The position numbers were made by a program, and so were the translations under genes. DNA of 64,000 nt, taken from positions 544,001-608,000 of the forward strand of contig JBHLNF010000001.1 in assembly GCA_048937405.1 (NCBI GenBank), written 5' to 3'. Shown piece by piece: positions 2,839-34,840 of the stretch; position 1 is the stretch's first letter, and every line of letters begins with the position of its first letter. Below the pieces are notes generated by a model. It ran no database searches. It was not told the origin of the DNA and saw only the letters and a list, made by a program, of their open reading frames with translations. Origin of the DNA: Promethearchaeota archaeon. Lineage in GTDB: Archaea; Asgardarchaeota; Lokiarchaeia; Sigyniarchaeales; SOKP01.

Positions 2839-3303
2839 GTGATTTTGGAAATTAAGAAAATTAAATTAACGATATTTGCACCAGATCCAGAAAAGAAATT
2901 GTCAAAAGGACTTGATTATGATTTGGAAATAGGCGATAATGGAACTATTATTGACGCATTAAGCTTATTAGATAAAAAAATTTATGATAATATCGAAGAT
3001 ACTATATTCCCAATTTATAAAGGCTTAATTAAAAGTTATCTTCAACTAATTTGGGATGCTGAGGAAAATATAATTTATGAGGATTGTGCTGTAAACGCTT
3101 ATGGTCCTCATAAAGAGTTCATGGCTTTACATGATGATATTAACTTTAATTTATATCCTAATAGTGAAATAACTATCGCTGTCCATGCTGATTGATGAGC
3201 TGATGTAATGAAAGAGAGATTAGATTATGGGACATTTAAAAGGATTATTATGAAAAAATATGGAAAAGATCATAAGAGTTTCGCCCATTATTTTAATTTA
3301 TAA
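2839..3303 (+). CDS. Putative selenoprotein, ThiS/MoaD-like beta-grasp protein with tandem in-frame UGA-UGA (3193-3198)
   Basis: ORF track stops at 3195, but GAT-TGA-TGA is followed by 34 open codons to TAA 3303 and a SECIS 14 nt later. Confidence 0.65.
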
Positions 3304-3316
3304 AAAATTAATTAAG

Positions 3317-3358
3317 TTGGATGAAATCTTTTAATAAAAATTAGTAAAAGATTGACAA
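3317..3358 (+). ncRNA. Eukaryote-type SECIS element (cis RNA hairpin)
   Basis: TTG-g-ATGA-a-ATCTTTTA-at-AAAAA-ttag-TAAAAGAT-t-GA-CAA: AUGA/GA core, 8-bp helix II, apical As. Confidence 0.8.
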
Positions 3359-3409
3359 GAGGATTGCCTCCTTTAAGAATCAAATTTATTCGAAAGAAGA
3401 TATGTCATT

Positions 3410-25101: not shown

Positions 25102-27609
25102 TTAATTAAGATAGGGACCTGTTTTGGACTTTTTATTCATTTTAATTTCAATTGGAGTTCCCTCTGCGATGACTTCTCCTCCTTTTGGTCCTCCATCAGG
25201 TCCTAATTCGATTATATAATCACAATATGAGAGGATCTCTGGATCATGCTCAATAATTAGAACAGTATTGCCCTCTTGAACTAATTTTTCAAGTAAATCT
25301 ATTAATTTAATTGTATCATAAAACGATAATCCAACAGTAGGTTCATCTAAAATGTAAAGAGATGACCCTTTTCTGATTTTCCCTAATTCTTTAGCCAATT
25401 TTACTCGTTGTGCTTCTCCTCCGCTAAGTGTTGGAGCAGGTTGTCCAAGTTCGATATAACCCATTCCAATCTCATCCAATATCTTAAGTACTTTTGAGAT
25501 ACCTTCTTGCGATTTAAACAACTGTGCTGCTTCATTAACAGTCATTTGAAGTACATCTGATATAGATTTTCCTTTATATTTAACTTCTAAAATTTCAAGT
25601 CTGTATCTTAATCCCTTGCACTCCTTACATGGAATTTCAAAACTAGTAAGAAAAGATACTTGTAGGTCTTGTACACCCTGCCCTTTACAAGCGGGACAAC
25701 GACCACGATCAGAATTATAAGAAAAATGTCCAGCGGTATACTTTCGTTTTTTAGCTTCACCAGTCTTTGCAAATAAGTTTCGAACCTTATCCCATATTCC
25801 TATAAAGGAACAAGGGGTTGAAGTACGAACTCGTGATATGGGTTTTTGATTAACAACAACTACTCCATCAATATTTTCCCACCCTTCTACTTGTCCAGAA
25901 TATTCTAATAAATCTCCGCCATTTTCTTCCTCTTCTTCACCATTTTCTCCCTTTTTATTAATCTTATTTTTTCCTTTTCTTCTAAAATATGGTCTCAATA
26001 AAGGAACTAATGTATCTAATATAAGAGAGCTTTTTCCAGACCCTGATACTCCAGCAATACCCACCATTACTCCTAAAGGAAATTTAATGGTCACATCTTT
26101 CAAATTGTTTGTGGTTGCATTCTTGAGTGTTAGATATTTCATATCACCTCCAATTTTCCTAACAATACTGGAATCTTTCTCAGGCAATGAAATAGTTTCA
26201 GCAAGAAATTGTCCTGTATATGATTCCTTAATCTTTTTAATTCCTTCAATTGTTCCTTGATAAACAATATTACCTCCATCAATACCTGCACCCGGACCAA
26301 TATCGATTATTTCATCTGCAATATCTATGAATCGTTTATCATGTTCAACAACAATAACAGTATTACCTAATTCCTTTAATTGTTGCAAAATATGAACTAA
26401 GGAATCTTTTTCTTTCTCATGCAAACTCATGCTGGGCTCATCTAAGATATAAACCAAGGAATCTAATCCTCCATCTAAATGAGACATTAGTGAGAGCCTT
26501 TGTAATTCTCCTCCACTTAGTGTAGGTAGGGAACGATGTAAATGTAAGTAAGATAATCCAACATTGATCATTCGGTTCAAACCTTGTTTAACATTTTCAA
26601 GCATAAATCTTCCTTGTGGACTTCTAATATCTTCATCTGTTAAATTATCAATGAAATATTTGAGTTCATCAATTGTCATTGTTGCAAGTTCCCCTATATG
26701 TCTATCCGCAATTTTTATTTCCCTTGCTTCTTCATTAATACGAAATCCTTGGCATTCATCACACTTCTTCTTAGACATATATTCTTTAGTAATTTTATTC
26801 TTTCTATATGCACTCTTACCTTCTGTCATCGCACGTTTCATATGGGGGATTATCCCTTCAAATACTCTTTCTAATTCTCCTTGAAATGTTTTTGATTCCC
26901 ACGAAAACTTAAACTTCTTACCTTTACTCCCATAAATATATAGGTCTTTAATTTCTTGTGGCAAATCCTTATAAGGAGTCTTAATGTTAAAATCAAAGAA
27001 ATTTGGAAGTTGTTCAACAAATCTTATTTGATCAGCAAAGCATCCTGATCCAGCTTTAGTAATTTGTAGTAAATTTCTATTATAATCTTGAACAATCATT
27101 TGTTCTGTAAAATGCATCTCATATCCTCGACCTTTACATGCTAAACACATCCCAGAAGGTTCATTAAACGAAAAATGCTTAATTTGCTTACGTTCTACCA
27201 CCATCCCACATAAATCACATTCCAGAGTTGATTGATTTACTGGATCTTTGCAGATTGGACAGATTAGGATTCCTTCTGTAGCATATAACATTCGGATTAG
27301 ACCATATATCCCAGTTTTAGTACCAACTGTAGATCGTGGGTTAAATACTCTTGTAGTCCTCTGCTCAACCGCCACAGTTGGGCTTAAGCCTTCAATCATA
27401 TCAAAAGGTTTTTCATCTTCAAACTTGGGAGGAAATCCAATGGACTGGAGATACCGATTCATTCCCTCATCAAATATTATATCGAATGCTAAGCTAGACT
27501 TTCCTGAGCCAGATACTCCTGTAATAAGGATCATCTTTCCCTTAGGAATATCTACATCTATATCCTTTAAATTATGTATTCTTGCTCCTCTTACTTTTAT
27601 AACATCCAT
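25102..27609 (-). CDS. UvrA-like ABC ATPase, class II (DrrC/Ecm16-like)
   Basis: GARIHNLKDIDV, two NBDs, zinc fingers; short between first CxxC and FSFN, so UvrB-binding domain appears absent. Confidence 0.85.
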   Translation of the reverse strand: MDVIKVRGARIHNLKDIDVDIPKGKMILITGVSGSGKSSLAFDIIFDEGMNRYLQSIGFPPKFEDEKPFDMIEGLSPTVAVEQRTTRVFNPRSTVGTKTGIYGLIRMLYATEGILICPICKDPVNQSTLECDLCGMVVERKQIKHFSFNEPSGMCLACKGRGYEMHFTEQMIVQDYNRNLLQITKAGSGCFADQIRFVEQLPNFFDFNIKTPYKDLPQEIKDLYIYGSKGKKFKFSWESKTFQGELERVFEGIIPHMKRAMTEGKSAYRKNKITKEYMSKKKCDECQGFRINEEAREIKIADRHIGELATMTIDELKYFIDNLTDEDIRSPQGRFMLENVKQGLNRMINVGLSYLHLHRSLPTLSGGELQRLSLMSHLDGGLDSLVYILDEPSMSLHEKEKDSLVHILQQLKELGNTVIVVEHDKRFIDIADEIIDIGPGAGIDGGNIVYQGTIEGIKKIKESYTGQFLAETISLPEKDSSIVRKIGGDMKYLTLKNATTNNLKDVTIKFPLGVMVGIAGVSGSGKSSLILDTLVPLLRPYFRRKGKNKINKKGENGEEEEENGGDLLEYSGQVEGWENIDGVVVVNQKPISRVRTSTPCSFIGIWDKVRNLFAKTGEAKKRKYTAGHFSYNSDRGRCPACKGQGVQDLQVSFLTSFEIPCKECKGLRYRLEILEVKYKGKSISDVLQMTVNEAAQLFKSQEGISKVLKILDEIGMGYIELGQPAPTLSGGEAQRVKLAKELGKIRKGSSLYILDEPTVGLSFYDTIKLIDLLEKLVQEGNTVLIIEHDPEILSYCDYIIELGPDGGPKGGEVIAEGTPIEIKMNKKSKTGPYLN

Positions 27610-33971: not shown

Positions 33972-34421
33972 ATGAAGAATATAAATGAGAAGGATAAAAT
34001 AATGTCTTGTTTAATGGAAGGGTTCAACTGATCTCAAGCGATATTTTCAACATATGCTATTAGATTTGGTATAAATCGTGAACTAGCATTAAAAATTTCT
34101 GGAGGTTTCGGAGGTGGCATGGCAGGTTTAGGTAATACTTGTGGGGCTATTACCGGTGCTTTTATGATCTTAGGACTTAAGTATGGTAATGAAAAAATTG
34201 GAGGAGAAGAGCCAAATAAAAAGCTTTTTACTATGATTAGAGAATTTGTCTCGCGATTCGAATTAACTTATAATACCATTAAATGTAGAGACTTAATTGG
34301 TTATGATATTAGCACACCTGAAGGAAGACAACTTGCTAAAGACAAGAATATTTTCAATACTATATGTCCAAAAGTAATTTTAAATTCTGCTGCTATTCTT
34401 GAAGAGATGTTATCTAAATAA
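33972..34421 (+). CDS. C-GCAxxG-C-C family redox protein, selenocysteine form (UGA 34029-34031)
   Basis: GGAG SD, ATG 33972, EGFN-U-SQAIF...SGGFGGGMAGLGNTCGAITGA...IKCRDL...C; UGA sits at the family's conserved first Cys (FNCAQ-type). Confidence 0.85.
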
Positions 34422-34510: not shown

Positions 34511-34762
34511 ATGGATAATCGAACCACAGCATTGATAGGTATTGGAGCTACAGTCATTACGCAATGCCAGCCCTGATTTGAGACTATGTTCAATTTTGCT
34601 CAAAAAAGCGGTGTTAATGAACAAGAAATATTAGACGCAATTAAATTAGCAAAAAAAGCAAGAAAACACGCAATTTCGAGGATGGATAAATTTATTTCAA
34701 CATTTTTAGAGTCAAATGAAGGATCTGTGAAGAATTCCGGAAAAAGTGGATGTTGTAGTTAA
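34511..34762 (+). CDS. AhpD/carboxymuconolactone decarboxylase-like selenoprotein (CxxU; UGA 34574-34576), 83 aa
   Basis: MDNRTTALIGIGATVITQ-CQP-U-FETMFNFAQKSGVNEQEILDAIKLA...SGCCS*; absent from ORF track. Confidence 0.85.
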
Positions 34763-34794
34763 ACTTTGGAAATATTATGCCATTAAAAAAATAA

Positions 34795-34840
34795 ATTGAA
34801 TGATATCCTTCAGTAAAAATGATAGTGAGGGATTGACAAT
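34795..34840 (+). ncRNA. Eukaryote-type SECIS element
   Basis: ATTG-a-ATGA-t-ATCCTTCA-gt-AAAAA-tgatag-TGAGGGAT-t-GA-CAAT, 33 nt after the AhpD-like stop. Confidence 0.85.

Follow-up and report, generated by a model that had tools for sequence, protein, structure and literature searches.

Two adjacent in-frame UGA codons in a gene of the window (the whole 64-kb stretch of DNA analyzed) are very probably read as selenocysteine (Sec, U), through a 3′ lokiSECIS element and the Sec machinery of the genome. Judging from the sequence comparisons below, the product would be a 154-aa beta-grasp protein that carries Sec119-Sec120 at the position of the Gly-Gly loop of MoaD and CysO, followed by a small helical cap. 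The gene model found in databases almost certainly stops short at an apparent stop codon, the real product being a small ubiquitin-fold protein with an adjacent Sec pair. The gene belongs to the subtype designated below as class A and has the following features.

2839–3303, + strand: complete selenoprotein reading frame, encoding 154 aa when both TGA codons are read as Sec; predicted beta-grasp domain at residues ~5–120, then three short C-terminal helices
3085–3087, + strand: codon of Cys83 at the start of strand beta3, the proposed third ligand; invariant in class A proteins
3193–3198, + strand: TGA-TGA, codons 119 and 120, read as Sec119-Sec120; TGA-TGA in 40/40 class A genes
3199–3300, + strand: helical extension of 34 aa after the UGA codons, with the pattern RL..F..G..YF; open in all homologues
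3321–3355, + strand: lokiSECIS, consisting of AUGA-N, an 8-bp stem (3326–3333 with 3345–3352), an A-rich loop of 11 nt with AG at its end, and N-GA
3359–3373, + strand: small second hairpin directly 3′ of the SECIS, covarying across homologues

The reading frame starts at a GTG (2839) and ends at a TAA (3301–3303). An ORF with adjacent TGA-TGA, a downstream extension and a TAA had been described in the first-pass annotation, and this layout was confirmed, with 34 open codons after the TGA pair. Because TGA-TGA terminates only 8 of the 2,999 long ORFs in the source genome, where TAA accounts for 71% of the stops, its presence here is not a matter of chance. Across all classes, position 120 is TGA in 87 of 87 genes and never TAA or TAG, and neither of these codons occurs in the following 30 codons of any gene. 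The reading frame of the tail is open in all 87 genes and varies most at third codon positions (0.26 vs. 0.12 and 0.11), and across homologues the sequence is conserved as coding both before and after the UGA site. These patterns, together with the continuity of the tail in Cys-containing homologues (see below), support the vicinal Sec-Sec pair and tail suggested earlier. The alternative raised with it, a terminal Sec followed by a stop, does not fit a second TGA that is never replaced by TAA or TAG and a conserved tail that is uninterrupted in the Cys homologues.

It is highly improbable that TGA-TGA is a double stop, with the downstream region being either a conserved RNA motif in which UGAUGA serves as box C or a separate 31-aa gene with its start at ATG 3208. 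An ATG does lie five codons past the first TGA in 39 of the 40 class A genes, and gene callers end nearly all homologues at the first TGA. Among the 120 matches listed from a protein search that found 192 homologues, 119 end at this same residue. However, TAA and TAG are never used at the site, and the codons between the TGA pair and the ATG show third-position variation. Since this variation is accompanied by 14 genes that have no ATG, GTG, or TTG within ten codons past the site, the tail is not a separate gene. Moreover, translation runs straight through in the Cys homologues and in P0147, an Asgard-type homologue without UGA in which C-V-S replaces C-U-U and the tail is kept. The double stop with a separate small ORF was rejected on these grounds; the box C/D RNA was also rejected, as the flanking CTGA (box D) is disrupted by synonymous changes. 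A genome-wide reassignment of TGA to Trp was likewise rejected, given that 430 ordinary ORFs end in TGA. The two database entries with WW at the site are products of gene calling under code 4, and the one remaining homologue among the 120 listed, which was called with TGA as Trp, continues into the same tail.

Tandem UGA codons should reduce read-through, and the shorter form would contain the whole beta-grasp domain of the AlphaFold2 model, ending in G-C in class B. These points could suit a selenium-dependent switch, in which translation at low selenium halts at the first UGA to yield a shorter beta-grasp protein with a role of its own, and full-length protein is made only if Sec-tRNA is abundant. 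Such a switch is nevertheless quite improbable: the class A short form would end in H-A-D and have no reactive tail, and no sequence feature requires this explanation.

The AUGA of the SECIS begins 17 nt after the TAA, and the element has the same shape as the lokiSECIS published for Lokiarchaeota selenoprotein genes (PMC4989117), in agreement with the earlier remark that Lokiarchaeota use eukaryote-like SECIS elements in 3′ UTRs. The first-pass annotation was right about the hairpin, although the spacing is 17 rather than 14 nt and the loop starts with AUAAA rather than AAAAA. Its description of the element as almost identical to one at 34795 was overstated; the element at 34800 has 47 of 61 positions identical (77%) and a 13-nt loop. 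The same pattern follows the PrxL gene, two VhuD genes, and one HdrA gene of the source genome, each with an in-frame TGA. By an ungapped score trained solely on these four elements, the window SECIS scores 27.5 bits (background ~20) and ranks 7th among ~8.9 million positions of the source genome, or 3rd once the training elements are set aside. The predicted folding of the isolated hairpin is weak (−5.6 kcal/mol, z −1.05), and the evidence for a SECIS is conservation rather than folding energy. The pattern follows 78 of 88 family genes, against a background rate of 3.3% at the ends of ordinary genes; the genes without it mostly lie at contig ends or come first in a tandem pair in which the second gene is followed by a SECIS. 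Compensatory changes occur in 8/8 stem pairs, with pair counts that lean high given that the elements were chosen by their pairing pattern. The conservation of the hairpin, on which the earlier reading depended, is therefore borne out. An Rfam search returned nothing relevant and no lokiSECIS match. Downstream of nearly every lokiSECIS of the source genome there is a small hairpin whose loop resembles UUGC; it was not found in the available part of the account in PMC4989117. Further SECIS-like elements with the second hairpin are located at C28+548892, C28+496408, and C26-120146 of the same genome.

The Sec machinery, whose presence was proposed as a check, was found in the source genome. Its components include SecS (E 9e-113), a SelD that scores over the cut-off and has one in-frame TGA in the motif G-U-S-C-K, an EFSec-like GTPase (E 2e-68) and a PSTK-like kinase (E 8e-45), the latter two scoring below their curated cut-offs. 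A tRNA-Sec gene with a UCA anticodon, a 9-bp acceptor stem, a G discriminator, and apparent introns adjoins SecS; it was missed by ARAGORN and identified with RF01852 and by eye. It is located at ~230425–230580 of contig C7 (L124:1466–1622), and its D arm and T arm are each interrupted by an apparent intron. For the Loki tRNA-Sec described in the literature, a single intron in the T arm is reported. ARAGORN reported just seven tRNAs in the source genome, and introns may be common. Among the 160 genomes of the class Lokiarchaeia, 150 have SecS.

A profile search found the family in 135 of the 160 Lokiarchaeia genomes and in none of the 239 other genomes of the phylum, and the named homologue records are mostly from Promethearchaeota, i.e., Lokiarchaeia. 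Among 88 distinct genes, the loop falls into three types in exact ungapped register: class A has H-A-D-U-U-A (the window gene), class B has G-C-U-U, and class C has U-G-U-U, such that position 119 in Lokiarchaeia is U, C, or G. In a phylogeny from a quick IQ-TREE run, class B is basal and present in all distant families, and classes A and C are single clades inside the family of the window. In the cultured Promethearchaeum syntrophicum MK-D1, the family is represented by the class B gene DSAG12_01295 (WP_147662378.1), which is annotated as a 119-aa hypothetical protein ending at Cys; U-U, the tail, and a SECIS are found downstream of this annotated end. Several loci have irregularities. The copies at L025/L094, L092, and L093 appear to be frameshifted, with a premature stop that cuts the domain or the tail, which may be due to assembly error or decay. 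L016 (DATKTW010000027.1), on a contig of an actinobacterial MAG, is closely syntenic with the Loki_b32 locus L017 and is probably mis-binned. Because the profile matched no genome outside the class, the labels Odin-, Hermod-, and Hodarchaeota and one actinobacterium attached to some loci are probably depositor labels or mis-binned contigs. A plasmid search gave no family match.

Outside the Sec-using lineage, an exhaustive search recovered Cys homologues, some of which are named Bathyarchaeia. The first-pass annotation had proposed looking for Cys or Sec at the UGA positions of homologues. Cys occupies the position of U119 in 44 of the 44 homologues without Sec, none of which ends there, and in the Sec genes position 120 is invariably TGA, as described above. 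The profile of the Cys homologues matches that of the family with 99.2% probability over 129 columns, tail included. In these alignments, Sec and Cys pair in the way that the standard test for selenoproteins looks for.

The AlphaFold2 model (97 sequences) has a pLDDT of 88.6 and comprises five main strands, two helices, and then three short tail helices at residues 121–126, 130–141, and 149–152. Its best structure matches are the transcobalamin beta domain (Z 7.3), CysO (7.2), HVO_2177 (7.0), SAMP1 (6.6), and MoaD (6.2), and the best 50 VIA-align and Foldseek matches are nearly all beta-grasp proteins. These results agree with the beta-grasp fold suggested earlier, and a Foldseek search of the model, also proposed then, placed SAMP and Urm1 first with weak E-values. 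The Z-scores of about 7 are modest, and the transcobalamin beta domain matches the model equally well. In the CysO alignment, residues 7–120 of the model are placed on residues 2–90 of the chain (rmsd 3.0, 84 aligned). The alignments with CysO and E. coli MoaD both stop at model residue 120, which corresponds to the last residue of those chains; therefore, U119-U120 are placed at the Gly-Gly position, as the first-pass annotation had argued.

The predicted fold and the position of the Sec pair are as expected of a carrier of sulfur or selenium akin to MoaD, ThiS, and Urm1, one that would be activated by an E1 enzyme after cleavage of the tail or would hold a persulfide or perselenide on Sec. 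Additionally, the source genome has five ThiF/E1-type genes, located elsewhere than at this locus, and some Cys homologues read G-G-C. However, the Gly-Gly position is not free at the C-terminus: U-U is followed by 34 residues here, the tail is kept in every homologue, and no homologue ends in GG. E1, JAMM, MoaE, and ThiG were not seen among the conserved neighbors. Searches of Pfam and NCBIfam gave no family match, including PF02597 (ThiS) and PF09138 (Urm1), a sequence search of the PDB found no family, and ThiS clusters were only weak feature neighbors (0.78–0.82). A carrier role of this kind is improbable. Because a free C-terminal Gly-Gly is absent, the protein, as modeled, is related to the MoaD/ThiS sulfur carriers by its beta-grasp fold but falls outside their family; from the earlier label of beta-grasp sulfur carrier, the fold is retained and the canonical carrier is not.

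The selenoprotein gene is the last in a co-oriented series of four genes that begins with an arsenite transporter gene, and the neighboring features are as follows.

556–990, − strand: divergent ArsR/SmtB metalloregulator (NF033788 above cut-off; PF01022)
1188–2243, + strand: Acr3 arsenite efflux transporter (TIGR00832, 292.7 bits; cut-off 282.8)
2320–2499, + strand: uncalled Cys/His-rich ORF of 59 aa, with a homologue after acr3 in 18/58 loci
2523–2804, + strand: thioredoxin-fold C-x-C protein of 93 aa (matches to the Trx fold with Z up to 9.9), separated by 34 nt from the selenoprotein gene downstream

The 59-aa product is a possible metal-binding peptide. The C-x-C protein has invariant C21 and C23, its gene is near the selenoprotein gene in 46 of 58 loci of the window's own family, and it is a candidate reductant or partner. 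Its assignment to the ArsD family was rejected, as the best matches are plain thioredoxins, with a distant link to ArsD being possible.

Within the own family, 56 of the 58 loci have Acr3, ArsR, ArsM, ArsC, or the C-x-C protein, and 42 have Acr3, ArsM, or ArsC; these loci are related and the counts are not independent. In distant Lokiarchaeia, ars-type genes were found in 3 of 20 short loci, for which ~1.5 kb on each side was covered. The Promethearchaeum copy is flanked by genes for L-aspartate oxidase and acyl-CoA dehydratase. The neighbors of the Cys-only homologues, proteins in which a single Cys is conserved, are mixed. The link to the ars genes noted in the first-pass annotation thus holds for the co-orientation with Acr3 and is strong in the own family, but it is weak elsewhere in the class. 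From these gene neighborhoods, the arsenic link may be a specialization of the window's family. Genes similar to hgcAB also adjoin several own-family copies. In L008, L013, L023, L092, L099, and L100, the ars operon includes a Methyltransferase::HgcA-like fusion, whose score does not reach the curated cut-off for HgcA, and an HgcB-like ferredoxin, both encoded ahead of the selenoprotein gene.

The conserved sulfur and selenium residues number three in each Sec subtype, namely Cys83 plus U-U, C-U-U, or U-G-U-U. Cys83 was found in 120/120 and 24/24 class A proteins, compared with 2/35 in class B and 0/7 in class C; it thus occurs in the clade with only two chalcogens in the loop, and on the quick tree this compensation is a single evolutionary event. 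Based on beta-grasp topology, in which its strand would pair with the last strand, Cys83 is predicted to lie near the tail site. ArsD binds As(III) by a vicinal Cys pair and a third Cys (PMC4562236), and CU motifs in other prokaryotic selenoproteins are associated with heavy-metal chemistry (10.1101/2022.07.06.499078). The presence of three such residues in every subtype, together with the ars context of the own family, therefore suggests an ArsD-like binder of As(III) or a soft metal.

In the proposed mechanism, the loop would form a three-chalcogen site (here Cys83, Sec119, and Sec120; C-U-U or U-G-U-U in the paralogues) with a possible affinity for trivalent arsenic or for a different soft metal(loid), of which methylarsenite, Sb(III), and Hg(II) are examples. 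In the manner of ArsD, the protein could act as a high-affinity buffer or chaperone and hand its metalloid on to Acr3 or ArsM, and the adjoining C-x-C thioredoxin might keep the site reduced or free the load. This mechanism as a whole is given an even chance of being correct. The chance that this Asgard family converted the Gly-Gly tail of ubiquitin/MoaD into a metalloid site of two or up to three Sec residues, making the protein a selenium-based arsenic chaperone, may be slightly below even.

The main rival is a redox role, in which the vicinal pair would cycle as a diselenide or selenenylsulfide and pass electrons from the C-x-C thioredoxin to arsenate, methylated As(V), cysteines of ArsM or ArsC, or peroxides. 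The basal subtype A-G-C-U-U resembles the tail of mammalian thioredoxin reductase, Gly-Cys-Sec-Gly, which is a cycling redox pair. The commonest neighbor is the Trx-fold gene, a single conserved Cys is enough in the Bathyarchaeia homologues, as in thiol-redox proteins, and most selenoproteins are oxidoreductases (PMC13188914). However, such a pair needs two residues and all three Sec subtypes keep three, and there is no known oxidoreductase on this scaffold. A redox role is considered rather unlikely, although it and the metal-binding role proposed above are not mutually exclusive.

Other candidate selenoproteins were observed in the same genome. A CMD/AhpD-like protein (34511–34765, + strand; SECIS at 34800) has C-Q-P-U, a CxxU motif with the TGA at 34574, and a weak likeness to GSU3128-family selenoproteins; its close relatives in three other genomes of the class include one with the TGA and two without. 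Directly 5′ of this gene, a C-GCAxxG-C-C-like protein (33972–34421, + strand) has G-F-N-U-S with the TGA at 34029, and probably uses the SECIS at 34800 jointly. Both families are unmarked as archaeal in the 2026 table (PMC13188914). Elsewhere in the source genome (G000), the lokiSECIS of rank 4 (contig C19, ~94900–95150, + strand) follows a small membrane-type ORF with G-G-U-G-C, a candidate new selenoprotein. On contig C16 (~26200–26700, − strand), two near-identical lokiSECIS elements are 460 nt apart; a small membrane-type ORF with K-S-U-G lies between them, and no clear TGA-containing ORF precedes the first.

For novelty, a survey of Asgard archaea listed seven selenoprotein families (PMC11227280), and a 2026 review listed 119 prokaryotic families, 11 of them archaeal (PMC13188914), with no beta-grasp protein and no UU motif among the 119. 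Absent from both lists and without a Pfam model or a model in NCBIfam of June 2026, the family qualifies as new, as the first-pass annotation had supposed. Searches, mostly without subscription papers, for literature on the family, its accession numbers, or an Asgard ubiquitin-like selenoprotein found nothing. As far as could be found, the family is unpublished, and there is no other beta-grasp selenoprotein or prokaryotic protein with adjacent Sec residues.

If correct, this reading would provide the first known case of a selenoprotein with a beta-grasp fold and of adjacent Sec residues in a prokaryote, and Asgard machinery that lacks SBP2 would decode back-to-back UGA codons. Two or three UGA codons within four codons, served by one 3′ SECIS and no SBP2, would provide a sharp test of the ancestral eukaryotic Sec system, and the cultured carrier, Promethearchaeum syntrophicum, makes a direct test possible. 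The family would also extend the Asgard list by a selenoprotein that is among the most widespread in Lokiarchaeia, reveal hundreds of database entries as truncated, connect selenium use in Asgard archaea with the handling of arsenic and heavy metals, and introduce a new chemistry at the functional tail end of the ubiquitin superfamily.

Compared with known systems, the protein shares with MoaD, ThiS, CysO, SAMP, and Urm1 the beta-grasp fold and the placement of reactive residues at the Gly-Gly position. It differs from them in having Sec-Sec or Cys-Sec-Sec in place of Gly-Gly, 34–40 residues after the site, insertions totaling ~30 residues within the domain, no adjoining E1, and no Pfam sequence match. 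Like ArsD, it is a small soluble protein of an ars operon with a vicinal pair and a third chalcogen as the proposed As(III) site. However, the fold is different, selenium replaces sulfur, ArsA is absent from the conserved neighbors, and PF06953 (ArsD) has no match anywhere in the source genome; the likeness is one of analogy only.

The selenoproteins known from Lokiarchaeia and other Asgard archaea (PMC4989117, PMC11227280) are SelD, VhuU/FrhA, VhuD/FrhD, HdrA, PrxL, an AhpF-N-like protein, and a DsbA-like protein. The family shares with these the 3′ lokiSECIS and the machinery, and a single SECIS appears to serve its tandem paralogues, as is the case for hdrA and vhuD. In contrast, its fold is unrelated and its Sec codons are adjacent, and despite its presence in 135 of 160 genomes it appears in neither account. 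A precedent for adjacent Sec residues is the algal PDI_e with its GUGUU motif (PMC7539508), which has two consecutive Sec residues and the same U-G-U-U string as class C; PDI_e is a eukaryotic thioredoxin-fold protein, and homology is not implied. Finally, SaoL, SaoB, SaoC, and HgcA (10.1101/2022.07.06.499078) resemble the family in annotation truncated at the Cys before UGA, in vicinal Cys-Sec, and in a heavy-metal context, whereas they are bacterial, have one Sec at the site, and have unrelated folds.
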